Shown here: positions 1,966-64,000 of the stretch, in pieces | Layout: each line of letters begins with the position of its first letter | How positions within the stretch are numbered: position 1 is the first letter of the stretch | Source: Blastocladiella emersonii ATCC 22665 | Lineage: Eukaryota > Fungi > Blastocladiomycota | Length of the DNA: 64,000 nucleotides | Assembly (NCBI GenBank): GCA_025594325.1 | Contig: JANHCV010000002.1 | Location: 1,612,001-1,676,000, forward strand | Direction: 5' to 3' | Translations under genes and position numbers: made by a program | The notes under the pieces: generated by a model | Seen by the model: only the letters and a program-made list of their open reading frames with translations | The model's database searches: none | What the model was told of the DNA's origin: nothing

Positions 1966-2288
1966 TCGGACCTTGAAAGAAATACGTTGTACGAGTTGTT
2001 ATAGCTTTGACGTAGAGCGGGGCGTGCGTCCGTCGCGGTGCTTCTAGGACATGGATGTCAACGGAGAGTCGTGTCGCGCCACTTCGTGATCACACGAACC
2101 AAGCCAGCCGGTCGGTCATGTTTGTTTGGCCTCGCGCGTTCCAGCTCCCGGGACCTCACTCGTCGAGGAAACGACGGAACCACAGCCTTGACACAACTCA
2201 ATCTTGTCGTTGACGAGATGACCAAAGACATCCTGGTCTGAGCCATCTTGTTGTACCATGGAGCCGACACGAATGCCGCGCCGCGCTG

Positions 2289-2340
2289 ATGATGATGAGA
2301 TGATGAAGACGCTGATGACGATGAGATGATGAAGACGCTG
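2289..2340. repeat. Short tandem duplication (about 27-bp unit GATGAGATGATGAAGACGCTG, two copies)
   Basis: Read directly in the sequence. Confidence 0.7.
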
Positions 2341-5437: not shown

Positions 5438-5689
5438 TGGGTCTACGGCGAGTAATATAGATATAGAAGCTTCAATTTGACGGTGCGATTCGTCAGGTCG
5501 AGTATCTAACCGAGTTGTGCGATTCGAAGCCTTAATGCGCGAATGAAAAGCTCGCAGCGGCTGGGGCTTCAGCACGTCGGCATGCTGATGCCCATGGACG
5601 CGTCGCGAAATCACGTTTCGCACACGTGTTGGAGATCATTGACGATCACAAACGTTACGCGCGTCTATTTCATGTCCTATATGTCGTCT

Positions 5690-9467: not shown

Positions 9468-9554
9468 TGGTCAGCTCGCAAGTGGATTCATTTATATATA
9501 TTGCATCGATTGCTTGTATCCTGCACGTCGCTGGTGGCCCGCCGCGCGAGCGCC

Positions 9555-10428
9555 TCACGCAGCACACTTTGCGCCAAGCAACTTATCCGCGCCCGCTCTG
9601 GTGACGCCATTGTTGTCCCTCAAGTTGAGCGCAAGGTCAAGCACTCGAGCGAGGCGAGGCTGGGCGGGAGCGCGCGGAAGAGTGCGGCGGCGACGCTCGC
9701 GGAGATTAGAGTGGACGCGAGGGTGAGATGTACGAGATTGGGTGGCCATGACCAATCGGCGGGAGCGAGGCCATGGAAAAACCACGCGTGCTTGAGAACA
9801 AGCTTCGTCAGCGAGGATGGAAACCGGAGCGCCCCGAGCCGCGCCAGGTTCCAAGTGCAGCTGTCGGAGCTGAGCGAGAGCGAGGTCCGCGTTCGGGGAC
9901 GATATGGCCACGTTGAGCGCGCGCATCCCGTTCACGCTGATCAGCTCGGACCTGAGCGCAAGCTCGGTGGCCATGTCAGTCGCGATCGCAAGCGTGGCCG
10001 CGTAGATCGCCGTGTCTGCGAGGCACAAACTGGCGCAGACCCGCGTCATACGCAAACCCGAGCGCGGCGGTTGCCATGGGGCCGAGATTCAAGGTAGGCA
10101 TGCTGGCGGCGACCGTTCCGGACGTGCGCCTCCAATGAAAGACGTCGAGCCGCCGTTCCCTCGCAGCGGCAAACGCGATCCGCGCGATGGAGAAGTTGGG
10201 CGGGAGGCCCGACGCGACCCAGAGGTCGAATTCACGGGTTGCGCCGCGAGTGCTCGGCTGGTACAGCGAGAGGTATCGTAAGCGGCGCAGGATTGCGCGG
10301 TAGACGGCGATTCTCTCCCGCCCGGGCAGGACGCGCGCGTCGTTCGCCATGCCCGCCACGTCGACGGGCTCGTCGTGTAATTAGACGGCGCGGACGAGGA
10401 TGCTCTCGTTGTGCGAGGTGATGTTCAT
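9555..10428 (-). pseudogene. Decayed copy of the LRR family
   Basis: MNITSHNESILVRAV-stop(10381-10383)-LHDEPVDVAG matches MKLSITPILEQILVRAVWAHDDPDDVPG. Downstream homology continues in shifted frames, with most LRRs missing. Confidence 0.7.
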
Positions 10429-11025
10429 TTGCTATGCATTGAGTGACTTGGTGGAGAGGGGGCCGGTTGCGGCGCTCGCGCGCGCTCGAGTCGGGTGAGC
10501 GGGGGTTCCGCCACCACCAGTCGAACAATCGAGACTTGCCGACCACCGACCACTCTAACACCGGCGTATGCTGGGAGGAGAACGAGGGCAGGGCGGGCGT
10601 GCCACGTCGACGGCGAGAGGACGCGTCGCGGTCGCGTGTGCGGCACGTGCTTGATCGCCGAGCGCCCATGAACCCGTGATCACGGGACGCGAGCGTAATG
10701 CAGAGGCGCCCTCATGTCGCGCGCGCGCCGCGAGTGCGCCCAAGTCGGAGCCGTGCCACGTCGCCGTCGCCCTCCTCCGGCTCCCCTCCCCCGCTCGCTC
10801 TCTCTCTCGGCCGCCCCAACCGCCCGCCCGGATCGCGCCCGTCAGACACTCGACGCAACGCAACGCATCACGGAGCGACGGACCCCCGACGAAGCACACC
10901 CACGACGACGCGCGCGGCTGGACCCTCGCTGCACTACAACCGACCTCGCTGGATCGCCCCTCCTTTGACCTTCACGCCATCCACCCGCCCGCGACTGCAA
11001 CCGCGACTGCACCGACGACGCCACC

Positions 11026-41000: not shown

Positions 41001-44000
41001 GAGGACAAGCACCTCGTGGTGCGCCAGATCAACGACCTGATCCGCGTCCAGTTCCCCGCCGACAAGGACGAGGAGTACGTGACGCGGTCGCCGTGCCTGT
41101 TCGGCGACTACCGCCACGCGCTGCACGAGGGCGAGGGCCACCCGCGCCTGTACGAGGACCTGCTCGACTACGCGGCGATCCGCCCGCTGTTCCAGGAGAT
41201 CCTCGAGGAGTACAACGACAAGAACAACCCGATGCACCTTGTGCTGTTCGAGGAGGCCCTCGAGCACCTCACGCGCATCCACCGCGCAATCCGCATGCCC
41301 AAGGGCCACGCGCTGCTCGTCGGTGTCGGCGGCAGTGGCAAGCAGTCGCTGACGCGGCTCGCCGCGTTCACGGCCGGGTACAAGGTGTTCGAGATTGCGC
41401 TGTCGCGCGGGTACTCGGAGGCCGACTTCCGCGAGTCGCTCAAGCTGCTGTACTCGGAGCTCGGCAGCGGCAAGAAAGTGGTGTTCCTTTTCACGGACGC
41501 GCACGTGGTGCAGGAGGGCTTTCTTGAGCTGGTCAACAACATGCTCACGGTCGGCATCATCCCGACGTTGTACGCCGAGGACGAGAAGGAGGCAGTGCTC
41601 GGCACGGTGCGCGACGAGGTGACCAAGGCCGGCATGGTCGCGTCGCGCGAGAACTGCTGGCAGTACTTTGTCCAGAAGTGCAGCATGAACCTGCACATAG
41701 TCCTGTGCATGTCGCCGCAGGGCGACAAGCTGCGCGAGCGGTGCCGCAACTTCCCCGGCCTCGTCAGCAACACGGTCGTCGACTGGTTCCCGCCGTGGCC
41801 CGAGGAGGCGCTGCGGTCCGTCGCCGAGACCTTCCTCGGCACCGTGGTCCCGACCGAGTACAAGGACGCCATCGTCAGCCACATGGTCCAGGTGCACCTC
41901 TCGATCGGCGCGGCCTCGGCCGAGTTCCTCCAGCGCTGGCGCCGCACCAATTTCGTCACGCCCAAGAACTACCTCGACTACGTCAACTTCTACATCTCGC
42001 TCCTCCGCGACCAGCGCGAGACCAACGGCAAGCAGTGCACGCGCCTCGAGTCGGGTCTCTCGAAGCTCGAGGAAGCGTCGGTCCAGATCAAGGACCTCGG
42101 CGCCAAGCTCGCGGTGCAGAACGTCATGGTCAAGGAGAAGTCGGAGGCGTGCGAGGCGCTGCTGCAGGTCATCACGACGCAGACGGCGCAGGCCGAGGAG
42201 AAGAAGGAGCTCGCCATGAAGAAGGAGACGGAGCTCGACGCGCAGAACATCCAGATCGCCAAGGACAAGGAGGAGGCCGAGGTGGCCCTCGCCGAGGCGC
42301 TGCCTGCACTCGAGGAAGCGCGCAACGCGCTCAACAACCTGTCGGCCGCCGACATCACCGAGCTGCGGTCGTTCGCGAAACCGCCGCGCGAGGTGCAGAA
42401 GGTGTGCGAGTGCGTGTGCGTGATCAAGAACATCAAGGACGTGAGCTGGAAGTCGGCCAAGACCATGATGTCGGCCATCGACTTCCGCGCCTCGCTCATC
42501 TCCATGGACGTGGACGCCATCTCGTCGAACCAGGTCAAGACGGTCAAGACGATTCTGCGCGAGCTCGACATCACGTACGACCGCATGGTCGAGATCTCGA
42601 ACGCCGGCTCGGGCCTGTTCAAGTTCGTGCTCGCCGTTGTCGGGTACTGCAACGTGGCCAAGACGATCCAGCCCAAGCGGCTCGCCGTGGCCACGCTCGA
42701 GCGCAACCTCGCGCAGAGTAAAGCCGAGTACGAGAAGATCACGCGCGAGCTCGCCAAGCTCAACCAGAACCTGTCAGAGCTGCAGGCCCAGTTCCAGCAG
42801 GCGCGCACCGAGCAGATGGAGCTCAAGGAGATGGCCGAGGTGATGCAGCGCCGCCTCGACGCGGCCGACAAGCTCATCTCGGGCCTGCAGTCCGAGAAGG
42901 TGCGGTGGAGCAACGACCTGCAGACGCTGCAGGAGGAGCGGCACCAGCTCGTCGGCGACTGCCTGCTCGTGTCCGGGTTCATGAGCTACACGGGCGCCTT
43001 CAACTGGGAGTTCCGTACGGACCTGATGAACGTCAAGTGGATGCAAGACCTCGTCAACCGCAACGTGCCGCTGACCAAGCAGTTCTCCGTGTCGCGCATG
43101 ATGACGACCGAGGTCGAGCTCAGCCGGTGGGCGAGCGAGGGCCTCCCCGCCGACGAGCTGTCGATCCAGAACGGCATCCTGACTACGCGCGGCAGCCGGT
43201 ACCCGCTGTGCATCGACCCGCAGCAGCAGGCCGTGAGCTGGATCAAGCGGCGCGAGGCGAGCAACGGGCTCAAGGTCAGCACGTTCAACGAGGCCGACTT
43301 CCTCAAGCAGCTCGAGATGGCCATCACCTACGGGTTCCCGTTCCTGTTCGAGGACGTGGACGAGTACATTGACCCCGTCATCGACAACGTGCTCGACCGC
43401 AACATCAAGGTCGCGGGCAGCCGCCGGTTCATTGTGCTCGGCGACAAGGAGGTGGATTTCGATCCCAACTTCCGCCTGTACATGACGTCCAAGCTGTCGA
43501 ACCCAACCTACTCGGCCAAGGTGTTTGGCAGCTGCACCGTCATCAACTACTCGGTCACGCTCAAGGGCCTGCAGGACCAGCTGCTCAACGTGGTCGTGGG
43601 CCACGAGCGGCGCGAGCTCGAGGAGCAGCGCGAGCGGCTGGTGCAGGAGATGAGCTCGAACAAGGCGCTGCTCAAGGAGCTCGAGGACACGCTGCTGCGC
43701 GAGCTCGCGTCGTCGACGGGCATGATCCTCGACAACACGGAGCTGATCCGCACGCTCGAGGAGACCAAGACCAAGGCGACCGAGATTGCGCAGAAACTCG
43801 TGCTCGCGAACCAGACGGCCAAGGACGTGGAGCAGTCGCGCGACGGGTACCGCCCCGTGGCCAAGTGCGGGGCGATCCTGTATTTCGTGCTCGCGGAGCT
43901 GTCGGCCATCAACCCCATGTACGAGTACTCGCTGGCGGCGTTCCTCGAGGTGTTCAACGCGTCGCTCGACAAGAGCAAGCCCGACCCGGTGCTGTCGAAA

Positions 44001-46304
44001 CGGCTGGCCAAAATCATGGACACGCTCAAGTACGCCGTGTACAACTACGCGTGCACGGGCCTGTTCGAGCGCGACAAGCTCATGTTCTCGCTGCAGATGA
44101 CGCTCAAGCTGCTCGAGGGCGACGGGCTCATGGACCCGGTCGAGCTCGACTTCTTCCTCAAGGGCAACACGGCGCTCGAGATCCCCGCGCACACGAAACC
44201 CGACTGGATCAGCAACCAAGGGTGGAAGGACATTTGCAAGCTCAACGAGTTCCCGACGTTCGGCAACCTCATCCAGCACGTGCAGCAGAACGCGGCCGCG
44301 TGGCGCAAGTGGGTGTCGCACGAGACCCCCGAGGCGCTGCCCTCGCCGCTGCCCAACGCGGCCAACTTCACGCCGTTCCAGGCCATGTGCCTGCTGCGCT
44401 GCGTGCGGCCCGACCGCATTTACAACGCGGCGACCAACTTTGTGATCCTGCAGATGGGCGAAAAGTACGTGATGCCGCCCGTCATCAACTATCAGCACGT
44501 CTTCGAGCAGTCGTCGCCGACGACGGCCGTCGTGTTCATCCTGAGTCCGGGCGCCGACCCGGCGAGCGACGTGGCCAAGCTCGCCGAGTCGTCCGGGTTC
44601 GGCATCAACCGGCTCAAGTTCCTGTCGCTCGGGCAGGGCCAGGGCCCGATCGCGCTGCAGCTGCTCGACACGGCCGTGGCACGCGGGCAGTGGCTCATGC
44701 TGCAGAACTGCCACCTGCTCGCGGCGTGGCTGCGGCTGCTCGAGAAGGTGCTCGACAAGATCGACAAGCCGCACAAGGACTTCCGCCTGTGGCTCACGAC
44801 GGAGCCAACGCCGCAGTTCCCGATCGGCATCCTGCAGCGGTCGCTCAAGGTGGTCACGGAGCCGCCCAACGGGCTCAAGCTCAACCTGCGCGCGACCTAC
44901 TTCCGCATCAACGAGGAGATGATGGCCGAGTGCTCGCACCCGGCGTTCCGCCCGCTGACGTACGTGCTGGCCTTCTTCCACGCCGTGGTCCAGGAGCGGT
45001 CCAAGTACGGCAAGATCGGGTGGAACGTGAAGTACGACTTCAACGAGTCGGACTTCCGCGTGTCCTTTTCGATCCTCAAGATCTACCTGGCCAAGGGCGC
45101 GGACAAGATCCCGTGGAGCACGCTGCGGTACCTGATCGGCGAGACGACTTACGGCGGGCGCGTGACCGACGACTACGACCGGCGCATCGTCAACACGTAC
45201 CTCGAGGAGTACACGGGCGACTTCCTGTTCGACACGCACCAGCGGTTCTACTTCTTCAAAAGCGACCACGTGCAGTACGCGGTGCCGCTGTCGGGCTCGC
45301 GCGACGACTACCTGGGGGTCATCGAGTCGCTGCCGCTGACCAATGCGCCCGACGTGTTCGGGCTGCACCCGGACGCCGAGATCGGGTACCTGACGAACTT
45401 CGTGCGCGACATCTGGACGCAGCTCGTTGCGCTGCAGCCGCGGCGGACGGCGGGCGCGGGCGGGATGAGCCGCGACGAGATGATCGCGACGACGGCCAAG
45501 GAGGTGCTGAGCCGGATCCCGCCCGTGGTCGACGTGCTCAAGATCCGCAAGCACTTCGGGACGCCGACGCCGACGCAGATCGTGCTGCTGCAGGAGCTCG
45601 AGCGGTGGAACCTGCTGGTCGAGCGCATCGCGTCGACGCTGCGCGACCTGCAGCGCGCCATCAAGGGCGAGATCGGCATGTCGCAGAAGCTCGACGAGCT
45701 CGCCAACAACCTGTACAACGGCACGCTCCCCGCGCAGTGGAAGTCGCTCGCGCCGCAGACGGAGAAGGGTCTGGGCAGCTGGATGGCGCATTTCGACCGG
45801 CGGTTCGCGCAGTTCACGTCGTGGATCAAGAACGGCGAGCCCGTGGTGATGTGGTTGTCGGGCCTCCACGTGCCCGAGAGCTACCTGACGGCGCTGGTGC
45901 AGGTGGCGTGCCGCAAGAACGGGTGGTCGCTGGACCGGTCGACGCTGTACACGGTGGTGACCGAGTACACGGACGCCAAGGAGATCAACGAGCGGCCGGC
46001 GCTCGGGTGCTACATCGAGGGCCTATACCTCGAGGGCGCGCGGTGGAACTCGCAGATCGGCGGGCTCGACCGGCTGGTGCCCGGGTCCGGGCTCGTGCAG
46101 CCGCTGCCGATCCTGCGCATCGTGCCGATCGAGGTGGCCAAGCTCAAGCTCATCAACACGTTCAAGACGCCCGTGTACACGACGCAGCAGCGGCGCAACG
46201 CGGCCGGCGTCGGGTGGGTGTTTGACGCGGACCTCGCGACCCGCGACCACCCGAGCCACTGGGTCCTCCAGGGCGTGTGCCTGGTCATGAACACGAACGA
46301 GTAG
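32009..46304 (+). CDS. DNAH10: Axonemal inner-arm dynein heavy chain 10 (I1/f alpha); introns 32766-32826, 33973-34039, 34594-34670
   Basis: AAA1 [30 protein letters not shown]...[12 protein letters not shown]2 [11 protein letters not shown]3 [11 protein letters not shown]4 [10 protein letters not shown]-terminus [13 protein letters not shown]. The three introns splice in frame. Confidence 0.93.
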
Positions 46305-51952: not shown

Positions 51953-52460
51953 TGCAGATAGTTTGCGGGTGCTCGATCAGCGTGCGGGATGTTCCATGGG
52001 GCGCGGGCGCCGGTGGGGGAGAGCGGGTGCGCTGCGCGGTCGCGCCGGCCGATGAATGCGAAGTATCACCGTCACGTGCCCCCGCGCGACACATTTTTTC
52101 TCTCGCCCCTCGCGTCGCTCATCTGCTGCTCGAGGGCGCGCGAGGTCGGGTTACCGCACACACCCGCACCATGAAGCGAATTTCAGTCCGTGCAACGGTT
52201 CCAGCACTCGCCGCGGCGCCTTCTCTCGCGCTCGAGTCGCTCGACAACCTGCTCGCCGGCCTCCCACGCGTTGTTGTCCGCGACGGTCGCGCGCGAGGAC
52301 CTTCTTCTCTTCTCATCGGCTGATGCGTGCGGAGTCGTGCGCCCGCCGGCGGAATGAGCTCCGCGGCCCGCGTGGGCATCGATTGCCGTCTCCGCCGCGG
52401 CGGCGGTTCATGTGCGCTATGCGAGCTTGTCGCTCTCGCGCGCGTGAGGAGTTCCTCGGC

Positions 52461-52468
52461 CTATAAAG
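52461..52468 (+). promoter_or_regulatory. Candidate TATA box
   Basis: TATAAA about 60 nt upstream of the ATG at 52521, in otherwise GC-rich DNA. Confidence 0.4.
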
Positions 52469-52520
52469 CTCCCACGCGCCCCCTCCGCCCTCGCGCGCCT
52501 TGCTGATCCAGTCATTTGCC

Positions 52521-53824
52521 ATGAAGTACTCGTCCTTGCCCGTTGCCCTCGTTCTTGCCCTGCTCCTCGTCTGCGTACTCGCGGCACACGGCTCGCCGCT
52601 TCCCAAGGGTGGTGGCGGGAGCGGCGGCAGCAGCGGCAGTGGTGGCAGCAGCAGCGATTCATCGGGATCCGGCTCGTCGACCTTGAGCACCCGCGACTAC
52701 GCGTGTACGAGCAAGCTCGTGTTGCTGCCGTACCGCACAATGCGCTGACCCTCCATCTTTCGAATTTAGCAAAGTACCCGTACGTCGTGCGCGGCCCGCG
52801 CGGCTACCCGGGATACTGGGTCCCGGCGAACCTCTACTACCAGGACTCGCGCCGCGGCTGCGTCTTCGTCTACGAGAACGGCTCCGTCGACGAACGGTCG
52901 TACCAGGCGACGTGTCCCGAGAACAACGACACGCTAATCCTCGCCGCCATGATCGGCGCCGGCCTCGCCCTCTTCGCGTGCGGCTCCTGCTGCATCTGCT
53001 TCCTGCGCCGCAAGTCGCGCCAGCAGGCCGCCGAGCGCGCCAAGGCCGAGAAACCGACCAGCGTCACCGTCGACGGCTCGCTCGCTGCGCCCGTGCACAA
53101 TGCCTCGGGCGACGCGGCCGCGGGCGCGCTCGAGTTCATCCGCGCCAACCCCGCGCGCCAGCTTGTTCTCGATGCGGCTCTACTCGAGCGCATGGCGTCG
53201 CCTGCGAGCTGGGCGTTCGAGGTCCCGCCCAAGCACGAGCCGTTTGTTGAGCTCGAGAACGGCGGCACCTGCGTCACGTTGTTCGGCCAGCCCATTGAGC
53301 GCACTGGCCTCGACACGGACCTCGCCATCACCTCAAACCTGTCGCTGCCGTTCGTCCCGCCGCCCTCGCGCAACACCCGCCCGACGCTCTACTTTGAGGT
53401 CACGATCGCCGCCATGGACCCGCAGACAACGGTTGCTGTCGGCCTGACCACCGTCCCGTGGCCGACGTTCCGCTTGCCCGGCTGGAACGAGTGGTCGGTC
53501 GGCTATCATAGCGACGACGGCCGCGTGTTCGTCTCGGACGACGGCAACGGCACCAACTACGGCAAGCCGTACCGCCTCGACGACGTGGTGGGCGTTGGCG
53601 TCAACACGGCCGATTGCACCGTGTTCTTCACTCGTAACGGCGTCAAGCTCGCGACTGTACCCGGCGCTCGCGTGCCCGCACCTCGCCTCGCCGTGCACCC
53701 TGCGATCGGCGCGGACGGCAAGTGCACGCTCGACGTCAACTTTGGCATGCGGCCGTTCAAGTGGGAGCCCGCGAACGAGGGCAGCTTTGGGCTCGCGCTT
53801 GATGTCCTGCCGCGGTACTCTTGA
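52521..53824 (+). CDS. Type I membrane protein with SPRY/B30.2 domain (Ssh4-like) and C-terminal LPxY, one intron
   Basis: Signal peptide, 2-Cys ectodomain, TM followed by a Cys cluster. SPRY motifs LYFEV, LPGW..SVGYHSDDG, DDVVGVG, VFFTRNG, VNFG..PF. Ends LPRYS. Confidence 0.85.
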
Positions 53825-53987
53825 GCAAGCGGTGTCGACCAGTGTTGTGCCTCCAATTCAACTTCTGTCGGCGAAAGGTGACGGGATCAGGGGAACTGGC
53901 GAGCAGGGGTTGCTGGCGAGCAACGCGGTGATCAACGAGCCGTCCCTGCTTTAATCTCTCCCTCGTACCTGAAAGCAAACCACGAAT

Positions 53988-55218
53988 ATGAAGCTAATGG
54001 AGGAACGACTACATGCAACGCGACTGCCAGACATGGTCATTGACCAAATTCTATGCTACGCCGTGCGGGCGACTGATCCCGACGACGTCAACCAGCTGCT
54101 TCAATACGGCCGCGTCCTGCTTCGCGAAGGAGCCCCTCGCGTCCACCGAGCGATCCAGAACCACATGATCTCAATCTCCATGGACGATGCCAGCGCGACG
54201 GAACGCTTGAACGTGCTTGACGCTTGGCGCCGGTCTGGGAAGCCCCTCGACTACTCTGCGCGCGCCATCACCGATGCGGCCCCGTCGTACAAGACGCTCG
54301 ACTGGTGGCGCCGCTCCGGTCTTCCGCTTCCCGATTGCATGGTCGGGCCGATGGTCAAGGTTCACTTCAACGGAATTTGCCAAATGTCCGAGGATGACGA
54401 TCATGTTGTACGTTGCATTTTTTGCTCAAAAAATTCGGGCCCTCTCGACTAACGCGATCATATCAGCAACTCGTGCGCCGTGACGATCCGCCAGGCGACA
54501 AGTATATCACGTCGAACTTCATCCCCAACGGGCTCGACGGTAAGCATTACCAGACCATGGTGTGGTGCAGTGGGATGCGCGTCACAAAGACTGGAGCGTC
54601 CGCCCTCGCCAAGGCTATGAACAAACCGATGATGAATGTTCAGGACGTCGAACTCAATTATTGTGACTTAACGTTCCCGGTTATCTGCGCGTTACAGCTA
54701 CCCGAATTGGTCTTGGAGCTTGAGCTCGGTTTCAACTGGGCAAGCGAAGGCGCTGCGGACTATGCTGCCAAGGAGGGCAACGTCTCGCCTTTTCCCCGCA
54801 CCTCCGCCGCCTTTCACTTCGCAGTAACATCCTTGGAAGCCCAAACGATGTCGACGCTCTCTTTCGTTCGTTGCCCTCATCGCTCACAGAACTCAACCTC
54901 TTGGGCACTTTTCTTGGCGCTGAAAACGCGGGCGTTCTCGCCGACTATCTCCCGCAAAGTCTCAAAACTCTGAACTTGTCTGAATGTCATCTCGACTCCC
55001 AGTGCGTGGAAGTACTTGCGCCGTGCCTCCCAAAGACTTTGTACAAGCTGTACTTGAACTCCAACAACATCACCGCAGTCGGCGCAGCCGACCTCGCGCA
55101 CCACTTCCCGCCACAGCTCTCCCTGCTTGATCTAAGCAACAACCCGCTTGGCGACAAGGGACTAGCTGCACTCTCCGCTGGACTCGGCGCGAGCCTGCAA
55201 CTGCTGTTGTTGTATTCC
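53988..55218 (+). pseudogene. LRR-family gene with a 1-nt frameshift (near 54801), truncated by the element insertion
   Basis: Family N-terminus (VIDQILCYAVRATDPDDV), intron 54408-54466, FPRT/LRRLSLRSN frame switch. LRRs run to GASLQLLLLYS and homology then stops at a palindrome. Confidence 0.8.
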
Positions 55219-55233
55219 TTAAGGGATACGACA
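55208..55233. repeat. Imperfect 12-bp inverted repeat at the junction (TGTTGTATTCCT-TA-AGGGATACGACA)
   Basis: 10 of 12 positions complementary; both mismatches are transitions. Confidence 0.8.
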
Positions 55234-55359
55234 TGGGCTGACCCACTGCCACTCGGGCTGACCAATTGCTTACCCCGAGCAGTTGGCGGCAGTCACTTGG
55301 GGTAACCACGTGAGACCCAGTTGCTTACCCCAGGTGGTTAATAATATGTTGGATTCTAA

Positions 55360-55386
55360 TGTCGTGTTCCCTTAGGGAACACGACA
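55360..55386. repeat. Perfect 12-bp inverted repeat (TGTCGTGTTCCC-TTA-GGGAACACGACA)
   Basis: Read directly. Each arm matches the junction palindrome arm at 9 of 12 positions. Confidence 0.9.
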
Positions 55387-55686
55387 CGCGGACGGAGGCT
55401 GAAGGCCAAAGCAGGTGGGCGGGAGGGTGGGTGGAAGGGAGGGGGCAAGTGGTCAAGGAGTGAGTCCTTGACCTGACCCCCAAGCCAGTCCCTGACCAAC
55501 CCCTTGGGCTGACCATTGCTTACCCCGAGCGGTCGGCGGCGGCCAGCGAGCGCAGCGAGACGAAGAGCAGCGCAGCTGCAGCTACCCACTGACAGAGTTC
55601 CCTGGTCTGGTCCCTGACCTGACCCCCAAGCCCGTCCCCAACCACCTGCCGCAAGCGGCTGCTATGAAGCCACTCACCGCGCCAAC

Positions 55687-55754
55687 CTCCACTTTCATGG
55701 CATATTGCGACAGAGTATATATATACACTACCCTTTTTTGCCATGAAAGTGGAG
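55687..55754. other. Concentric dyad: perfect 16-bp inverted repeat around a 12-bp AT palindrome (origin-like)
   Basis: CTCCACTTTCATGGCA (55687-55702) and TGCCATGAAAGTGGAG (55739-55754). GTATATATATAC (55715-55726) has the same centre, 55720/55721. Confidence 0.8.
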
Positions 55755-55925
55755 ATTGTCAGAGACAGAGGTCAGGGTACGGGGGGGAGGTCAAGGACAG
55801 GGGAGTGTCCTTAGCAGCATCAATGTATTGGGCAGGACAGGGTCAGGGGTACAAGGTCAAGGCAGAGGAGCGTCTTAGCAGACAGCGTCTTAGCAGGAAG
55901 GCAGCGTGGCAGGTCATGGAGGGTC

Positions 55926-58900
55926 TTAGAGCTCGTTGTTGTCCTCGTTGTCGTCCTCGTCCTTGTCCATCTCCAGGACAAACGGCGCCGAATTGGCCGG
56001 GGGTCGGTTCCAGGTCTTGTACATGACAAAGTACAGAATGTCGTCTGTCCACTTCAGGTTACTGTACTTCTTGCCGCGTACTGAGACCCGGGGTTCGTCC
56101 TTGTCTGGCACAGCAAGGCACTTGTTAAAGTAGGTGCCAAGAAGCCTGTTTAGGACTGTTGCTGTGTCACACTTGTAATACCCAAGCTTCTTGAAGTACT
56201 TGTGGATGTCTGCTTCAAACTTGGCGGGGATGGTGGCCTGGATGTTGAACTCCTTGGACGTGCGGAGGTCCATGTCGTTGTGTTCCAGGAGCTTGTGCAG
56301 GACGTGGCCCTTGTCCTTGGTGTAAAAGTGCTGGATACGCTCCATGAAGCTCTCCGCGTTGTCGTCCCAGATGATCTTCATGTTGTCCATGCTCAGACCA
56401 TTGAACTTGTGGATGAAGAAGGCCTTGCGGATGGAGAGGGAGATGATCCAGTCCGGGTCCTTGATGGTACCTTTGCAGTAGGCACGCATGAGCTCCTTGG
56501 ATGGTGGCTGGACGTTTGCCCATTCGAAAGACCAGCCCGACGTCATGATATCCTTAATCTCAGGGTGCGCCTTGTAGTAGTACTCGGGGGAGTCGTCCAT
56601 GACAACGTTGGCGACCTTGCGGAAGGCGTCAAAGACCTTGAGGCAGAAGGTCACAGCGGCCATCTCGTTCTCAAGATCCGTGTTCTTGACAATAGCCCGG
56701 TGAGGTTTGCCGACCGAGTCCGAGTCAATGACCTGTAACTTGTTCATGTACGCGCCGTGGCAACCATTGCTGATCATAAACACGATCTTGTTGTCAATGG
56801 GGTAGCGCACGCGGTAGATTGCCTGGAAGAAGTTGCGGGCAGGGACCCAGGACTTGTAGCGCGCGTACACCTTGTGGAAGACGTCTGGCTTTGAAAAGTT
56901 GACCCCCACAGTGATCTTGAGGTTGGCAATGACTATACGGACCGTATCATTGCCCCACACAGAGTCAGGGTCAATGAGTTCCTTGTCCTCGTGGTTGGGG
57001 CGGTCGCCGTGGTAGAGCTTGATCTGCTTGCCAATCTTCCACGTCTCCTCGGCAAAGACCCGCTCGAGGTACTTGCCAAAGGTCTGCACCGACCACTTGG
57101 TTGACTTCTTGCATGGTCGTGGGAGGAAGAGGTAGAGCTTCTTGTTGGCCTTGAGGTCGGCAATGATGTTGCTCTCCATGATGTCTTCGGCGGACTTCTT
57201 GTTGTCCTTGTCGTCAGTGATGAGGCTCATCTTGCGCGGCTCAAAATTCTTGCCGAGCGTGTTCGTGATCACCTTGATCTTACCATGGAGTATGGTCTTG
57301 ATGTTGTGCTCGACAGTAAAGGAGCGGAGGACATCCATGGTCAGGTTTGTGACAAACGCGTCCATGAAGATACCCTTGCTGCCCTTGTGCTCGCACAGCG
57401 TCTTGAAGGCCTTGAGGTTGGCCTTGAGGTTGTTGCAAATGGTGGTTGTGTGCAACTTGGCGTCCTGGAACATCTTGAGGACCGTCTCGGACTCATCCAC
57501 CACAACAATGTTGTAGGGCTCGGTCAAGTAGTGCAGCAAGCACGGCGAGACAATGAGTTGCTTGTGATCCCCCAGTGTCTTCTTGTCCTTGATGCTGCGG
57601 TAGTTGACAAAGCCAAGCTTCTGTTCGCGGGCTCGACCCTCGGTGTTGTGGGCCAGGGTGATGCGAGGTGTGATCCAGACCACTCGCGCGTCTGGGTACT
57701 TGGCAATGTAGTCGCAAACAGCGCCTGTCTTGTTGGAGCCCATGCCCGTGGCCAGCACGTTGAACTTGGCCTCGGTAATGTCGTTGCAGCTCAGGAACTG
57801 GTTGGGGCTGGTGACGTCCACCGGTACCTCAAGCGACTGCTCAAACTTGGCCATGGCCTTGGACTTGAACGCGTCTGGGAACCGCTTGTAGAAGATGGCC
57901 TTGACGAACGTGTCCAGCACCTGGTAGTTGTCGTTGCTGGCAATCTCGTTCCATCGGTCCCAGTACTTTTGCATGCGCTGAGCCGAGTTGTCCTGCTGCG
58001 ACGTCCACGCCCAGAACTGGTCAAATGTGACCCCTTTGCGCATGGCCCATGTCATGATCCGCCAGGTCACGTTGTTGTGGAACGCGTTCTTGGGGCTGAT
58101 GGGGATGTTGTGGAGGATCTTGAGGGGCGTGGCGTCGTAGTAGAAGAAGTCAGGGTTGATCTGCACGTCCTTGAACTTGGGGATGTCAAGGTTGTAGTTG
58201 AGGCGACCCGCGTGGCGCTTGGTCCGCGCTTCCTTGGCCTTGGCAGTCACAAACTCTTCAAAGGACAGGTCCGAGACCGACGCGCAGTTGGGGTCAAAGT
58301 CGCACTGGATCAAGTGCTTGGACAGGCGGTCCTTGTTACCCGAGATCCACACGCCAGGTGTCTTCTTGGGCTTGGACTGGTTGATGCACTTCATGAAGCG
58401 GTGCTTGCTGTACACGCTGGAGTCAAAGCCAAGCTTGACGTGGTCGGGGTGGCTGCAGAACAGCTTCAGGAACGGCATGTCCTTGAGCGTGACTGTGTAG
58501 TTGCTGAGGACAATGTGCCATGACTTTTTGAGGTCTGTCTCATAGCCGCAGACCTGGAGGTTGGCGCCGGGGAACTGGGCCAGGATGACCTTCTTGATGA
58601 CGTCCAGGGTCACGTCCTTGCAGTTGCCTGGGCAGTCAATGTCAAAGTAGACCTTGGACAGGCGCTCAGGGTGGACCATCTCCTGGATGCAGCGGTTCTT
58701 GTTGAGGAGCCTGGCCAGGTCAGCTGTCTTGACCTTGGCAAAGTAGTGCGCCGCCTTGGGTTGGCTGTGGTTGTCGACGCCCTTGTTGATGAGGCGCTTG
58801 ATGACCGTCTTGTCGTCTTGCAGCTCGGACAAGAGCTTGCACTGAGGGCCCATTTCATCACCACCTTCATCCTTGCCATGGTACCACTGGAGACCAAAGG

Positions 58901-58940
58901 ATTTGCCACCTGCATTTTTGGGGACCGTCTTGCAGACCAT
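55926..58940 (-). CDS. AEP (PrimPol-like) primase + PriCT-like + herpes UL9-like SF2 helicase fusion (about 1004 aa)
   Basis: ATG at 58940 (MVCKT). AEP motifs YFDID, KSWHIV, FDSSVYSKHRFMK. Helicase motifs TGMGSNKT, VVWITPR, VVVDESE, MDAF, ITVGVNF, FQAIYRVR. Confidence 0.85.
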   Translation of the reverse strand: MVCKTVPKNAGGKSFGLQWYHGKDEGGDEMGPQCKLLSELQDDKTVIKRLINKGVDNHSQPKAAHYFAKVKTADLARLLNKNRCIQEMVHPERLSKVYFDIDCPGNCKDVTLDVIKKVILAQFPGANLQVCGYETDLKKSWHIVLSNYTVTLKDMPFLKLFCSHPDHVKLGFDSSVYSKHRFMKCINQSKPKKTPGVWISGNKDRLSKHLIQCDFDPNCASVSDLSFEEFVTAKAKEARTKRHAGRLNYNLDIPKFKDVQINPDFFYYDATPLKILHNIPISPKNAFHNNVTWRIMTWAMRKGVTFDQFWAWTSQQDNSAQRMQKYWDRWNEIASNDNYQVLDTFVKAIFYKRFPDAFKSKAMAKFEQSLEVPVDVTSPNQFLSCNDITEAKFNVLATGMGSNKTGAVCDYIAKYPDARVVWITPRITLAHNTEGRAREQKLGFVNYRSIKDKKTLGDHKQLIVSPCLLHYLTEPYNIVVVDESETVLKMFQDAKLHTTTICNNLKANLKAFKTLCEHKGSKGIFMDAFVTNLTMDVLRSFTVEHNIKTILHGKIKVITNTLGKNFEPRKMSLITDDKDNKKSAEDIMESNIIADLKANKKLYLFLPRPCKKSTKWSVQTFGKYLERVFAEETWKIGKQIKLYHGDRPNHEDKELIDPDSVWGNDTVRIVIANLKITVGVNFSKPDVFHKVYARYKSWVPARNFFQAIYRVRYPIDNKIVFMISNGCHGAYMNKLQVIDSDSVGKPHRAIVKNTDLENEMAAVTFCLKVFDAFRKVANVVMDDSPEYYYKAHPEIKDIMTSGWSFEWANVQPPSKELMRAYCKGTIKDPDWIISLSIRKAFFIHKFNGLSMDNMKIIWDDNAESFMERIQHFYTKDKGHVLHKLLEHNDMDLRTSKEFNIQATIPAKFEADIHKYFKKLGYYKCDTATVLNRLLGTYFNKCLAVPDKDEPRVSVRGKKYSNLKWTDDILYFVMYKTWNRPPANSAPFVLEMDKDEDDNEDNNEL

Positions 58941-58978
58941 GTTGTTATGATGAGGTAACAGAAAAGGTGACAGGACAG

Positions 58979-58992
58979 GTGCGTTTAAACGC
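58979..58992 (-). promoter_or_regulatory. Element promoter motif GCGTTTAAACGCAC upstream of the primase-helicase
   Basis: Ends 38 nt before ATG 58940; a near-identical motif precedes the recombinase gene. Confidence 0.55.
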
Positions 58993-59104
58993 GCAGGATT
59001 TAGCGTTAATGACTGGGCCCGGGAGCCCTTGCTGGCATGACCCATGACTTGCCACTGTCCAGGCCCATCTAACCTTGCATGACCTGACCCTGACCCAGAC
59101 ACGA

Positions 59105-59540
59105 CCTCCCCCATGAGCCCGACTTGGGAACCAGCAGGGTCCGAGGTCACGACCACCAAACCGTGACCTGGTAAGCGACTGAGTCCGAGGTCACGACCCT
59201 CCCATGCTCCCAACTTGGGAGCCAGCAGGGCCCGAGGTCACGATCCTTGAACTGTGACCTGGGCAGCGACTGAGGGCAAAGTCACCGACCCCCCATGCTC
59301 CCGACTTGGGAGCCAATTGCGTCTCAGGTCACGATCCTTGAACCGTGACCTGGGCAGCAACTGAGGGCAAAGTCACCAACCCCCCATGCTCCCGACTTGG
59401 GAGCCAGTAGGGTCCGAGGTCACAACCCCCATGAGCCCAACTTGGGAGCCAGTAGGGTCCGAGGTCACGACCCCCATGAGACCAACTTGGGAGCCAGTAG
59501 GGTCCAAGGTCACAAACCTCTCAAACCGTGACCTGGGCCC
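59105..59540. repeat. Tandem array: three 91-bp units then 45-bp units, with internal palindromes
   Basis: Anchor CCATG..CCCRACTTGGGA at 59111, 59202, 59293, 59384, 59429, 59474 (spacings 91, 91, 91, 45, 45). Confidence 0.9.
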
Positions 59541-59609
59541 TCCCACGGTCCATGACTTGCCACCATCATGACCCTGACCCAGGCCCAGCTACCCAGAAAA
59601 AAGAACGTT

Positions 59610-59623
59610 GCGTTCAAACGCAC
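59610..59623 (+). promoter_or_regulatory. Element promoter motif GCGTTCAAACGCAC upstream of the recombinase
   Basis: Ends 39 nt before ATG 59663. Confidence 0.55.
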
Positions 59624-59662
59624 TTGAGCCCATGGAGCCTTTTTGTTGACAGTCAGTAAACC

Positions 59663-60805
59663 ATGGCGCTTGACTCTCTTGCCTCCCAGGTCGCCATTGC
59701 CCTCGCTCAGCACTTTGCCGCCGATGTAGTGCACCAAGTGCTCAATGGTATCAAGCCGCTGCTGGCATCCTTTGACGAGCGGCTCAAGGGAGTTGAGACC
59801 AGCCTCGCCGCGCTGGCTGCAGTGTTGCGTAACTGCAATCACCGTCCCAATCACACCCCCGTCGACGAGTCTGGCGAGCCCATGGACACTGATCCCCAGG
59901 TCAAGTACGTGCAGATGACCGAGGAATCCATTGCGGCGTGCGTCAATGCGCGTGTTCAGAACAAGCACGGGGAACTGGTTGAGCTGAGCGACACGGACAA
60001 GGCCAAGGCATCCCGCGTGCTCTGTGCCTTTGCCAAGTCGGGCATGGACATTGAAGACGTTGATGCCGTGTCCAAAGCTGTGGCAGCGTACCACGCGTCC
60101 AAGGGCGAGCAGGGGCTGCAGGTTGAGACGCTCAAGGCCCTGGCCAAGTACTGCACCTGGAATGGTCAGCCTGAACTTGGGGCCAAGTACACAGAGGCCA
60201 AGAAGCAGGACGCTGCCGACTTCTGCAACGCGCGCAAGGAACTCGAGTCTGGTGCGCTCCCGAGCCGTGACGCCATTCGCACTGCTATTGTTGATGCAAA
60301 GGGCTGGGACTCGGGCACGGGGCTTCTGCGTCTGTACCTCCAAGTCGTGAGTGCAGTGCGCAGCGACCCCGCGTTCCTGACCACAAAGCCAATCACTGGG
60401 TACCCGTACTACGACCCAGAGACCCAGATTCTGGCCAGCAATGTCATTGTCAAGACAGAGGGCTGTGGCTACAACTTCTCGCACACAGTTAGTGAGCCCA
60501 AGGTCGCCGCCGCTCTTGAGCGTATCATTGCCCAGCGTCTTGCCAAAGGCCATGACTTTGTCTTCAACAACTACACCTGCGAGGAGCTCAAGGACACCAT
60601 GCTCCGCAAGAGGGTTAGCAACACCTGGTGCAAGTCAATTCACCGGGCTGCAGAGACAGTTGGCTTTGAGGATGGCGGCGTGGCAGTGATCCGCCGTATC
60701 TCCACCAGCGAGAACTTTGCCGCGCAGCAAGCTATTGCTGACCGCGCACACGAGATGGGTCACAGCGTCCCTGTTGCCCTGACCTACTACATGACGCCTC
60801 AGTAA
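59663..60805 (+). CDS. Tyrosine recombinase of the virophage/PLV type (380 aa)
   Basis: Catalytic order R (SAVRSD), K (IVKT), xxxR (AVIRR, His absent), H (MGHS), Y (TYY) near the C-terminus. Confidence 0.75.
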   Translation: MALDSLASQVAIALAQHFAADVVHQVLNGIKPLLASFDERLKGVETSLAALAAVLRNCNHRPNHTPVDESGEPMDTDPQVKYVQMTEESIAACVNARVQNKHGELVELSDTDKAKASRVLCAFAKSGMDIEDVDAVSKAVAAYHASKGEQGLQVETLKALAKYCTWNGQPELGAKYTEAKKQDAADFCNARKELESGALPSRDAIRTAIVDAKGWDSGTGLLRLYLQVVSAVRSDPAFLTTKPITGYPYYDPETQILASNVIVKTEGCGYNFSHTVSEPKVAAALERIIAQRLAKGHDFVFNNYTCEELKDTMLRKRVSNTWCKSIHRAAETVGFEDGGVAVIRRISTSENFAAQQAIADRAHEMGHSVPVALTYYMTPQ

Positions 60806-60833
60806 TCCTTTTGTCTCCGCCTTTGTTAATACA

Positions 60834-61946
60834 ATGTATGCCCACGAAGAGCCGCTCACAGACGCACAGCAAGCATTCCTGACAGACTTGTACTACAAGC
60901 ACGGCCACGTAGGTGTTGGCATCCGTTGGCTCTTTGACATTGTGTCCAGAGAGAACACAGGGAAGCACATCTACCGCGCCCAGCTAGAGAGATGGCTCGG
61001 CAAACAGTCTGTGAGGCAGCAGTACAAACGCGCACCTCAGAAGCGCCAAGACATTCGAAGCATCAACTCAACAAGTCCTGGCCGCAACTTTCAGCTCGAC
61101 CTCATTGACATGGGCGAAAACGGTACGTACAAGGGCTTCCGTTACATTCTCACGTGTGTCAACCTGGCGAGCCGCCGCGTCTACCTCCAACCCATCAAGA
61201 CCAAGGACAAGACGCGGGAAGCATGGTCCAGCGTGGTCGCCAAGCACAGCCTTGCACCTGCCACGATCCAGACGGACAATGGGACCGAGTTCTTTGGAAT
61301 AGAGGCCGGGACCAAGGCCAAGCACATCAAGGGCAAGGCAGGAGTGCCATACGGTCAAGGTGTCATTGAGCGTATGAACGGGACCATCCGCCGGATGCTC
61401 ACACCGTGGCTGTCCATCCCGGGCAACAACGACTGGCCCAAGCACCTCGAGACCATTGAATCTGTCATCAACAGCAGCAAGTCGAGGGCCACGGGCAGGG
61501 CGCCCAACGAGTTCCATGACATGCCCCGCAAAACGGCCAAGGAAGAGCTCAAGGCAATCCGAGCTGCCAAGGGCAAGCCCGAGGGCAACCCTCTGAGCGC
61601 GTTGCTGAAGGTAGGGACCCAGGTCCGAGTCCGCGAGCCGTACAAGACTGCCATGGAGGCCAAGGGGAAGCCGGTCTGGTCGCCGACCGTGAGCCAGGTC
61701 CAGGTCGTGCGCAAGGGGTCGGGCGTGAGCAAGCCAAGCTACAAGGTCCAAGGCCTCAAGGGCTTCTACCCTCGAAGCGACGTCCAGCCAGTCACAGCGA
61801 CCCAGGACCCGCCAACAAGGCAGCGCGTAGGTCCAGGTCTTCCAAGGCTCCCTGTTGCGCGCACCCCAGTCACGCCAAGGGAGCCCTCGACCCGGGTCAG
61901 GCGCGTCCCAGTCCGAGTCCAAGAAAAGTGGGACCGCGGGCTTTAG
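60834..61946 (+). CDS. Retroviral-like (rve) DDE integrase, Maverick/Polinton type (370 aa)
   Basis: QLDLIDM, YILTCVNLASR, IQTDNGTEF, IERMNGTIRR, INSSKSRATGRAP. C-terminal KVGTQVRV..WS..YKV. No gag, RT or RNase H nearby. Confidence 0.92.
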   Translation: MYAHEEPLTDAQQAFLTDLYYKHGHVGVGIRWLFDIVSRENTGKHIYRAQLERWLGKQSVRQQYKRAPQKRQDIRSINSTSPGRNFQLDLIDMGENGTYKGFRYILTCVNLASRRVYLQPIKTKDKTREAWSSVVAKHSLAPATIQTDNGTEFFGIEAGTKAKHIKGKAGVPYGQGVIERMNGTIRRMLTPWLSIPGNNDWPKHLETIESVINSSKSRATGRAPNEFHDMPRKTAKEELKAIRAAKGKPEGNPLSALLKVGTQVRVREPYKTAMEAKGKPVWSPTVSQVQVVRKGSGVSKPSYKVQGLKGFYPRSDVQPVTATQDPPTRQRVGPGLPRLPVARTPVTPREPSTRVRRVPVRVQEKWDRGL

Positions 61947-63886
61947 AGCAGGGTCCAGTGGCTTTGAATGATGACCTGGCAGTCGTTGGCAACTGCGACT
62001 GACGGGATCCAGATGAAAGAGTAGCTCTTGGCCGCGTCAAGGTACTCAATGCTCGAGAACTGAAGGAACTGGACATTGCCTTCAGCACGGCACCCGGTGA
62101 CAAGCGACACTGCAATCATGTCCGTCATATTGTACAGCGCAAAGTTCACAGTGTGGGCTCCAGGGAGCGCGCCGTTTGCGTAGTAGCCCTTTGCATGGAC
62201 GAGGTAGTAGCCACTGACAGGGGGTTTGACGCATCCATTGATCACAGACGTGAACGCGCCCGCTGTGGACTGGAACGCAAAGGTGGCCGGGCCCGTTGAT
62301 GCTGTGCCGCCAATGATCTTGCCGCCCGTGGTCACTCCATTTGTAGAGCGGTGCTCGGCCTGAGCGACGTACCGGGTCGTGCCAGACCGCGAGTCAACGT
62401 ACGCCTTGTTTGCCGCGTTGGTGCCTGCCACTGGAGCAAGGTCAAGGGTGAGCTGCCCTGTGAAGCGACCAGTGCCATTGACGCGGAACCTTTCTGTGCC
62501 AAGCGTCGCCGAGCCCACGACCACATTGCCGCCACCTGCCACAAGGGAGACCCCGCCTGTGGTCGCAGACGCATTCTCAATGTTACCCGCCGCTGTGCAT
62601 GCCAGGTTGCTTCGCAGTACGCCTGCCTGCTTAAAGTCGACGTACGTCAATGTATTGGCAGCCGAGTCAAAGACAAGGTTCGCGCTTGTGGCATTCCGGA
62701 CCAGGACGTTGGGCACAGTCAGTTGCTTGCCAACTCCAAGACCACCAGCAATGGTGACTGCTCCAGTGCTTGATGTCAAACTGTCCGTCGTATTTGCAAA
62801 GGCAAAGGCAGCGCCGAGTCCAAGGGTGGACTGGGGGAGCGTGCCAGTGACCGAGGCTGCGCTCACGGCCGTGACCTTGGCCGAGACGTCGGGGAGTCGT
62901 GCCAGGTCAATGGTCCCTGCAAGCTTGGCCGAGTCAATGCCAGATGCCAGCTTGGCGTTGGTCAGGGTCCCGTTGGCGATGCGGGCAGGGTCAAGGATCC
63001 CAGTGAGCTTGACCGCCGACACGTCCGCGACCTTGGCGTCCGTGACTGCGCCTGCTGCCAGGTGGGCTGTTCCAATGGACCCGACGTTGAGCTTGCCCCC
63101 ATCAATGCCAGTTGCCAGCTTGGCGTTGGTCACGGCCGCGTCTGCCAGGACCAGGGAGCCAACCGTGCCTGCTGCCAGCTTGGACCCGTCGATGCCAGCT
63201 GCCACCTTGGCGTTGGATACAGCACCGTCTGCCAGGGCTCCCGTCCCAATAGTCCCTGCAACGAGCTTGGACCCAGACACAGACGCGACCTTGGCATCTG
63301 TGACTGCCAGGTCGATGAGAGCCACTGTGCCGACTGTGCCTGCCACGAGCTTGGACCCAGACACGGACGCGACCTTGGCATCAGTCACTGAGCCGTCTGC
63401 CAGGACCGAGGTCCCAACTGTGCCTGCCACGAGCTTGGACCCAGACACCGACGCGACCTTGGCATCAGTCACTGAGCCGTCTGCCAGAACCGAGGTCCCA
63501 ATGGCTGGGAGGTTGGACGCACTGAGTACGCCCACAACCTTGGACGCAGACACAGTGTCCAGCTGAGCATCAACGAGCTTGCCTGTGACCTGCCCTGCTG
63601 TAATCGTGGCGACCTTGTCGGCCGTGATGCTGGCTGGGAGCAGCTGTGCCGTACCAACCGACTTGACATAGAGCCCTGCTGCGCCCACGCCAAGGGTCTG
63701 GTTGTCGACCTTGGCCGACACAGTGGTCCCTGAGACTGCCACGCCAGGGCCAGCAACAGGTGTGCCAACCGTGGCGTACACGGCACTGATGGCCGCATCA
63801 ACGTAGGCCTTGGACACGTCCGGGACCCCCGTGGTAGACACGGTCAGAGACGCAGTACTTGAGACGTTAAAGATATTCTTGACCAT
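61943..63886 (-). CDS. Virion fibre/adhesin-like protein with 28-29-aa shaft repeats and a C1q-like head (about 647 aa)
   Basis: ATG at 63886. KAYVD motifs, about 6 repeats of GTSVLADGSVTDAKVASVSGSKLVAGTV, TGAVTIAGGLGVG, head with PPVSGYYLV. Confidence 0.75.
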   Translation of the reverse strand: MVKNIFNVSSTASLTVSTTGVPDVSKAYVDAAISAVYATVGTPVAGPGVAVSGTTVSAKVDNQTLGVGAAGLYVKSVGTAQLLPASITADKVATITAGQVTGKLVDAQLDTVSASKVVGVLSASNLPAIGTSVLADGSVTDAKVASVSGSKLVAGTVGTSVLADGSVTDAKVASVSGSKLVAGTVGTVALIDLAVTDAKVASVSGSKLVAGTIGTGALADGAVSNAKVAAGIDGSKLAAGTVGSLVLADAAVTNAKLATGIDGGKLNVGSIGTAHLAAGAVTDAKVADVSAVKLTGILDPARIANGTLTNAKLASGIDSAKLAGTIDLARLPDVSAKVTAVSAASVTGTLPQSTLGLGAAFAFANTTDSLTSSTGAVTIAGGLGVGKQLTVPNVLVRNATSANLVFDSAANTLTYVDFKQAGVLRSNLACTAAGNIENASATTGGVSLVAGGGNVVVGSATLGTERFRVNGTGRFTGQLTLDLAPVAGTNAANKAYVDSRSGTTRYVAQAEHRSTNGVTTGGKIIGGTASTGPATFAFQSTAGAFTSVINGCVKPPVSGYYLVHAKGYYANGALPGAHTVNFALYNMTDMIAVSLVTGCRAEGNVQFLQFSSIEYLDAAKSYSFIWIPSVAVANDCQVIIQSHWTLL

Positions 63887-63906
63887 GTTTAACCTTAAGC
63901 AACAGA

Positions 63907-64000
63907 ATGATTTCCAGCGACCATGACCTGAGCCTGGACGAGTGGCAGGAGCACCTCGCCGGGACCATGCCCGTGCCAAGCAGCTGGTACAGCAAGAGCG
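63907..64000 (+). CDS. Possible start of the next element gene (MISSDHDLSLDEWQEHL...), open to the window end
   Basis: 31 open codons only, divergent from the fibre gene. Confidence 0.25.
   Translation, partial: MISSDHDLSLDEWQEHLAGTMPVPSSWYSKS

Follow-up and report, generated by a model that had tools for sequence, protein, structure and literature searches.

The locus described here raises the question of why a single integrated element should carry genes for two different integration chemistries side by side. The locus lies on contig JANHCV010000002.1 of the blastocladiomycete fungus Blastocladiella emersonii ATCC 22665 (assembly GCA_025594325.1), within a stretch of 64,000 nucleotides (nt; positions 1,612,001 to 1,676,000 of the forward strand), the whole of which is called the window here and is numbered from its first letter. 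Two genes of a repeated element stand in tandem on its plus strand, one for a divergent tyrosine recombinase (YR) of 380 residues and the other for a predicted integrase of the rve superfamily of 370 residues, the latter with an aspartate-aspartate-glutamate (DDE) triad. It is probable that a divergent YR of virophage type and an rve-type DDE integrase are combined here in one many-copy element, likely an endogenous virophage-like virus.

Both genes start with ATG and are intact, and their tandem arrangement is as the initial annotation had described it. The recombinase gene occupies 59663-60805 and the integrase gene 60834-61946, with a spacer of 28 nt (60806-60833) between the stop codon of the former and the start codon of the latter. 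Long open reading frames (ORFs) are also present on the minus strand opposite the gene pair, at 59510-60553 and 61068-61922, and because coding DNA rich in guanine plus cytosine (GC) yields long antisense ORFs, ORF length is weak evidence of real genes. The pair is taken as real because both proteins have homologues. The 380-residue protein has seven paralogues of 55-95% identity, all of them hypothetical proteins of B. emersonii ATCC 22665, and three more distant relatives, only four relatives in all being found among 1.84 billion representatives, while the only close relative of the integrase is a metagenomic protein, P0008, of 31% identity. No related viral or metagenome contig loci were found when either the recombinase or the integrase served as the query.

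The fold and the ancestry of the 380-residue protein are, with high confidence, those of a tyrosine recombinase, and it may be catalytically active. Its domains comprise a long N-terminal helix (residues 1-55), a core-binding domain (about 83-200) and a catalytic domain (about 200-380). An AlphaFold model computed from seven sequences has a mean predicted local distance difference test (pLDDT) value of 62.4, being good over residues 83-240 and weaker in the catalytic domain. That the protein models as a tyrosine recombinase, which the initial annotation had made a test of its proposal, is borne out, with moderate confidence given the pLDDT of the model, by the top matches of three fold searches, with a best Z of 8.5. 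Using Foldseek against the PDB, the first matches are lambda Int, Cre, XerA and XerH, with probabilities of 0.9-0.99 and E values of about 1e-2. An unbiased VIA search against 48,161 chains gave nothing but members of the recombinase/topoisomerase IB fold class at ranks 1-9 (best match Z 8.5, root-mean-square deviation 9.9, 230 residues aligned). In a second VIA look, rows 1-37, which span residues 76-376, contain exclusively tyrosine recombinases, type IB topoisomerases and relatives sharing the recombinase fold, and the best Z of 8.5 was obtained over residues 84-377. The weight given to the fold search comes from this uniform top of the list and not from the Z value. In the viral library BFVD, ranks 2, 8 and 9 are named integrases and rank 4 is a protein of Aureococcus anophagefferens virus, found with a probability of 1.00; this virus encodes an OLV11-like recombinase according to PMC4642659, to which rank 4 may correspond. 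Language-model features of the whole recombinase place it nearest to clusters of unnamed proteins of about 288 residues that are 100% viral (Preplasmiviricota), and for residues 195-380 PF00589 is found in 17 of 30 named clusters, together with ResT/TelK and Integrase_1.

Relatives in viral loci tie this family to canonical recombinases. A profile of the recombinase family, applied to 351 ORFs of viral loci, recruited ORF L025:7743-8714 on a virophage contig (E 5.3e-5), and the latter as a query found nine further ORFs at E 8.6e-10 or better. One recruited ORF, on L021, matches PF00589 with an E of 6e-5 and 23.3 bits, below the cutoff of 27.1, and also the XerA model with an E of 6.6e-7. Using hhalign, the family of 14 sequences aligns with XerC, XerD, lambda Int and Cre at an E of 0.0057 over 239 columns that include both domains, and the Arg-I, LR(H/R) and MGHS...Y blocks fall into register; as a negative control, the alignment with the integrase family gave an E of 0.52 over 22 columns. 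With the profile of seven sequences, the comparison with canonical recombinases was not significant (E 0.2). The identity between the window recombinase and its viral-contig relatives is only 12-15%, the relative P0011 reaches Phage_integrase of Pfam at an E of only 0.062, and single-sequence phmmer searches of the 351 viral-locus ORFs with the window recombinase, the integrase or the neighbouring fibre-like protein returned no relative.

The catalytic set of tyrosine recombinases consists of Arg, Lys, Arg, His/Trp and the nucleophilic Tyr. 'Six active site residues' is the wording in a passage of PMC2442088. In the window protein the candidate catalytic residues are R233, K264, R344, H367 and Y376. 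Invariant in all 14 family sequences are K264, T265, R344, M365 and Y376, and H367 is kept in 11 of the 14, while an Arg at or near position 233 occurs in every sequence that covers it, with the MAFFT columns 1-2 apart between subfamilies. The initial annotation had pointed out that the His of the HxxR motif is missing, and this is correct, since the motif reads AVIRR (residues 341-345) with Ala341 at the His position. As a sign of decay, however, the missing His does not hold up. Across the 14 members, among them 10 ORFs of viral contigs, this position is occupied by A, Q, Q, R, S (nine members) and N and never by His, so that Ala341 is a trait of the family. A His at the HxxR position is likewise missing from type IB topoisomerases and telomere resolvases, and hence its absence alone does not exclude catalysis.

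The 370-residue protein can be assigned to the rve/DDE integrases on the basis of its sequence matches. A profile of this protein and P0008 matches 122 integrase chains of the PDB (best E 2.1e-11), the IS481 transposase model matches the window integrase with an E of 1.5e-16 as its best match in the bacterial library, and P0008 passes rve_3 with a score of 36.5 vs a cutoff of 26.5. The predicted triad is composed of D89 (in QLD), D148 and E179. Thirty residues lie between Asp148 (TDNG beginning at residue 147) and Glu179 (IER beginning at 178), and the D(30)E spacing noted in the initial annotation, in place of the usual D(35)E, is thus present; what cannot be upheld is that it marks decay, because P0008 has a D(28)E spacing and a shortened interval is a family trait. 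In the PDB alignment a gap of five residues appears in the integrase family right after the TD.G.EF motif, and a deletion of five residues at this point accounts for the spacing. Residues 1-85 contain zero cysteine, so that the His-His-Cys-Cys (HHCC) zinc finger is lacking, and the C-terminal part is beta-rich with a Pro/Arg-rich tail at its end.

Both genes belong to one repeated unit. Logan contigs of four DNA runs from one sample were mapped to positions 52000-64000 of the window, and their summed depth is read as a sign of a repeated family and not as a copy number. The left boundary of the element lies at about 55210-55247, where contigs of single-copy depth (about 150 in run X1) stop at 55236/55246. 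The summed depth rises to 1,400-12,000 in the bins from 55208 to 64000, between 10 and 80 times the depth of the flanking DNA, and it is similar across the recombinase and integrase genes. The visible part of the element is its left 8.8 kb, since rightward it exceeds the window at 64000, and no second copy was found elsewhere in the 64 kb. The junction of the two genes is itself bridged by a contig, 60779-60900 with one mismatch, whose depth in X1 is 1393, where unique DNA has about 150. In a divergent subfamily, contigs depart from the window after 60793 and continue with Val, a stop codon, 20 nt and then ATG, a read-out that fits the ...YMV end of the paralogue P0006 (about 60% identity) followed by the start of an integrase. 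This subfamily appears to keep the recombinase-integrase order. Moreover, three other copies have a helicase and a recombinase paralogue with consecutive locus tags (007654/007653, 008336/008337 and 006650/006649).

One link to virophages is this helicase, the product of the gene that lies divergently upstream of the recombinase gene. A profile of the helicase family detected 23 loci in IMG/VR, on 22 contigs of 4-25 kb, at 23-30% identity, and these relatives are superfamily-2 (SF2) helicases (Herpes_ori_bp/DEAD/ResIII). A Pfam scan covering 213 ORFs of these helicase-bearing loci revealed a Sputnik-type major capsid gene on 5 of the 23 loci, the V18/19 penton on 3 and an A32-type ATPase on many. 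Members of the recombinase family are encoded on 10 of the 23, including all 5 with a capsid gene, and rve was found in 0 of the 213 ORFs. Two gene families are thus common to the window element and to bona fide virophage genomes, and the integrase is the odd one out. Virophages, as well as polinton-like viruses (PLVs), with an OLV11-like tyrosine recombinase are described in a passage of Yutin et al. 2015 (PMC4642659), and the recombinase ORFs of the viral contigs are presumably of this OLV11-like type.

Several other explanations have to be weighed against this reading. It is very unlikely that one of the two genes, integrase or recombinase, is part of a mobile element of its own that lies nested in the other, a possible refutation listed by the initial annotation. 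Such cases exist, since in cryptophyte PLVs 12 of 12 co-occurrences of rve and YR, among 8,300 elements, were due to nested retrotransposons (PMC12220804), and IS481-type transposases are the best match of the integrase in the bacterial library. Here, however, the spacer of 28 nt on one side of the integrase gene and the overlap of 4 nt with the next gene on the other leave no space for separate ends. No inverted repeats flank either gene, as only weak pairs of 23-26 nt inside coding DNA were found, and no reverse transcriptase is fused or adjacent to the integrase in the visible element. The multi-copy junction contig, and the gene order that seems to be kept by a subfamily with an approximately 60% identical recombinase, point in the same direction. 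We also regard it as unlikely that one of the enzymes is redundant and being lost, with the recombinase being either an inactive virophage relic after the gain of the DDE enzyme or reused as a non-catalytic DNA binder. This would fit the missing HxxR His, the occurrence among the fold matches of recombinase folds that only bind DNA (SroF, MrpR, YopR and Ndc10) and the existence of damaged copies. Paralogue P0004 is internally deleted and P0007 is truncated, and in one contig in each of two runs a skip 60768->60880 (111 nt) is observed; lost with it would be the last 13 codons of the recombinase gene (the stop codon and the presumed Tyr among them), the spacer and the start of the integrase gene, and the contig represents a variant copy with a deletion. 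On the other hand, the His is absent in all 14 members including 10 viral ORFs, which argues against a recent loss, K264, R344 and Y376 remain invariant down to 12-15% identity, and 5 of the 7 paralogues retain a complete catalytic domain with the key residues, 4 of these 5 being annotated from an internal Met. Codon positions speak to the same point. In partial lists restricted to the best-supported differences between copies, 14 of 25 in the recombinase fall on the third codon position (p 0.016) and 13 of 25 are synonymous, while for the integrase the corresponding numbers are 9 of 18 (p 0.11, not significant) and 7 of 18. Purifying selection on both genes is weakly supported by these data, and the third-position excess in the recombinase runs counter to its redundancy.

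A capsid-less, transposon- or plasmid-like cassette of helicase, recombinase and integrase with borrowed virophage genes is likewise improbable. It is favoured by the lack of a capsid gene in the visible 8.8 kb, by the high repetition of the element and by the fact that Cryptons, DNA transposons encoding a YR, are known in fungi (mentioned in PMC12220804). However, the helicase and recombinase families occur together with a Sputnik-type capsid on 5 viral loci, a gene for a fibre-like protein adjoins the integrase gene, and the genes are packed in the compact manner of viruses, with overlapping stop codons. The reading as an endogenous virophage-like virus carrying both enzymes is preferred, and the following observations, together with the damaged copies, the skip and the partial codon lists given above, weigh against it. 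Genes for a capsid, a penton, an ATPase or a protease are absent from the window, and as the element leaves the window, the case for a virus is built on two gene families shared with virophages and on a fibre-like gene. Apart from the absent canonical His, the recombinase has no Pfam match at E <= 1, Phage_integrase included, no PHROG or NCBIfam match, and no match in PDB sequence searches with the single sequence or with the profiles of 7 and 14 sequences. The fold searches gave it middling scores, with a Z of 8.5 and no Foldseek E <= 1e-3, and in its model the pLDDT is <50 over the C-terminal 20 residues, where the presumed nucleophile lies. As to the integrase, Pfam rve gives 23.9 bits, below the cutoff of 32.6, and the predicted model has a pLDDT of 36.8.

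Among the neighbouring genes, the replication protein with the helicase core is encoded on the minus strand at 55926-58940 and comprises about 1004 residues when counted from Met92 of a 1095-residue ORF. The core is of the superfamily-2, herpes-UL9 type (Herpes_ori_bp), and PF02399 matches 4 of 8 members of the helicase family (best E 3.5e-16), the window copy not being among them. DxD and sxH motifs resembling those of primases can be recognised by eye only at the N-terminus; Pfam primase families were found neither in 12 viral relatives nor in 8 fungal members including the window copy, and the helicase profile has no match in the PDB. Seven paralogues (57-91%) occur in B. emersonii, and homologues of 45-50% identity are present in Allomyces arbusculus, A. 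javanicus and A. macrogynus (P0019, P0020, P0021). Two of the Allomyces homologues lie on contigs of only 14.6-15.0 kb, a length that corresponds to a complete genome of a virophage or PLV. Two of the viral loci contain ORFs of about 1,700 residues (L010:4279-9602 and L014:12966-17978) that combine an SF2 helicase (ResIII/Helicase_C) with an Eco57I-type methyltransferase. On the other side of the gene pair, the fibre-like protein of 678 residues, with repeats of about 28 residues encoded by 84-nt repeats, is specified on the minus strand at 61943-63979. It matches Phage_Tail_Tip with 39.2 bits, above the cutoff of 22, as well as PHROG tail-fibre families, and its gene is convergent with the integrase gene, the stop codons overlapping by 4 nt.

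The replication and recombinase genes diverge from an intergenic region of 722 nt (58941-59662) that contains a repeat array. Seven copies of a 45-nt unit, with a period of 45/91, occupy 59108-59521, and the units contain the inverted half-sites AGGTCACG/CGTGACCT. The length of the array differs between copies, as seen from a joint 59290->59426. On both sides of the array a palindrome, GCGTTYAAACGC, is located at 58981-58992 and 59610-59621, and each of the divergent start codons has one copy 40-55 nt upstream of it; the 64 kb contain no further site, though 7 of 100 shuffles reached the same count. The array is a candidate promoter/operator, replication origin or recombination site.

At the left end of the element, a non-coding region of about 0.7 kb (55210-55925) is delimited by the change in depth and contains an internal direct repeat, whose two copies (55238-55290 and 55492-55540) lie about 250 bp from each other, as well as a palindrome (55683-55758). 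Within the element, summed depth peaks in the stretch 55208-55608, at 12,157 in X1 vs 1,400-6,700 farther in, and this peak could reflect the presence of the region at both ends of each copy, tandem copies or solo remnants. GC content is 0.52-0.64 from about 53.75 kb to the end of the window vs 0.62-0.75 in the upstream host DNA. The lower values, 0.54-0.59, set in about 1.5 kb to the left of the repeat boundary, in a stretch (53750-55247) that is at single-copy depth and contains the ORFs 53988-54452 and 54413-54973. A leucine-rich-repeat-like ORF, 54871-55305, crosses the boundary, and the element may accordingly have inserted into or beside a gene. In the GC-rich host part of the window there is an open frame of 3,857 codons at 34731-46304. 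Several contigs of run X4 share one short foreign sequence at loose ends at 58182, 60604, 60714, 60740 and 63026, which we take to resemble the loxP-type linker of some mate-pair libraries; most probably it stems from library preparation and has no biological meaning.

How the two enzymes could coexist can be envisaged as follows. The viral nature of the element, the activity of both enzymes and the substrate of each are points that we infer. By analogy with mavirus, the endogenous mavirus-like elements (EMALEs) and Polintons, insertion of the linear element at non-specific sites of the fungal chromosomes would be the task of the DDE integrase. Virophage ancestors are the likely source of the tyrosine recombinase, which would have come from them along with the adjoining helicase gene, and the DDE integrase may have been added to this helicase-recombinase module. 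Such an addition fits associations reported in a passage of a preprint (10.64898/2026.10.13.758929), in which tyrosine recombinases go with replicases of the archaeo-eukaryotic primase (AEP)/PolA type and DDE enzymes with PolB. The recombinase would then act on a different substrate, that is, on circular forms, on replication concatemers or on the genome of a helper giant virus, the last having been suggested as a target of virophage recombinases in a passage of PMC8547959. A candidate site for it is the 45-nt array, which has inverted AGGTCACG half-sites and immediately precedes the recombinase gene; the array could equally be an origin bound by the UL9-type helicase. A division of labour between the two enzymes, as the initial annotation had supposed, is thus plausible. 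In a bolder and rather doubtful version, endogenous virophages of blastocladiomycetes would shuttle between two genomes, using the DDE integrase for fungal chromosomes and the His-less YR on the palindrome-rich repeat array beside its gene either for integration into or excision from a Mycodnaviridae-type giant virus or for a resolution of concatemers resembling that by telomere resolvases. If true, shuttling with two chemistries would point to a triangle of giant virus, virophage and host in fungi.

Comparison with known systems puts the pairing into perspective. Integration genes have been described as 'either' YR 'or' rve by Bellas et al. (PMC10120064). The initial annotation had stated that such elements generally carry one integrase type, but this overstates the novelty of two integration chemistries in one element, as Hackl et al. 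2021 (PMC8547959) report that mid-GC EMALEs (types 5-7) of Cafeteria burkhardae, which are virophages, combine a YR, an rve integrase (rve-INT) and a long primase/helicase. These resemble the window element in having a predicted YR in addition to rve-INT, with a long ORF for a primase/helicase in place of a protein-primed polymerase, in their many integrated copies and in a GC content below that of the GC-rich host. They differ in their host, a stramenopile flagellate as opposed to a fungus of the Blastocladiomycota, and the likeness is drawn here from gene content, copies and GC; the tandem position of the YR and integrase genes beside the helicase near one end also sets the window element apart. 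With virophages and PLVs of the Sputnik/Organic Lake type it has in common that the nearest relatives of its recombinase are found on viral contigs with a Sputnik-type capsid and the same helicase family, whereas those contigs lack rve in the 213 ORFs scanned and their recombinases are only 12-15% identical to that of the window. Polintons/Mavericks and mavirus are likewise virus-like elements that are integrated in eukaryotic genomes and encode an rve-type DDE integrase; they combine it with a protein-primed PolB, and no PolB is seen in the window element. Unlike retroviral and Polinton integrases, the window integrase is without HHCC, has the D(30)E spacing and scores best with IS481-type models.

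What looks new is the fungal host of a virophage-like element and not the pairing of a YR with a DDE enzyme. Among the papers listed by our literature search, none links Blastocladiella with polintons, Mavericks, virophages or endogenous viral elements, with the proviso that supplements of surveys may list fungal elements. Small viruses of the polinton/virophage type are said to be rare in fungi in a passage of PMC13348850, and for giant viruses of zoosporic fungi the documentation is recent and comes from Allomyces, which is related to Blastocladiella (PMC13533422). The word virophage does not occur in the Mycodnaviridae paper on the giant viruses of Allomyces, nor is Blastocladiella named there. 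With the Blastocladiella element and its relatives in three Allomyces species, fungi may host the third partner of a giant virus-virophage system. The element would also be a second, independent virophage-like element that keeps both a YR and a DDE integrase, and its comparison with the EMALEs of Cafeteria could help to explain why both enzymes are retained.

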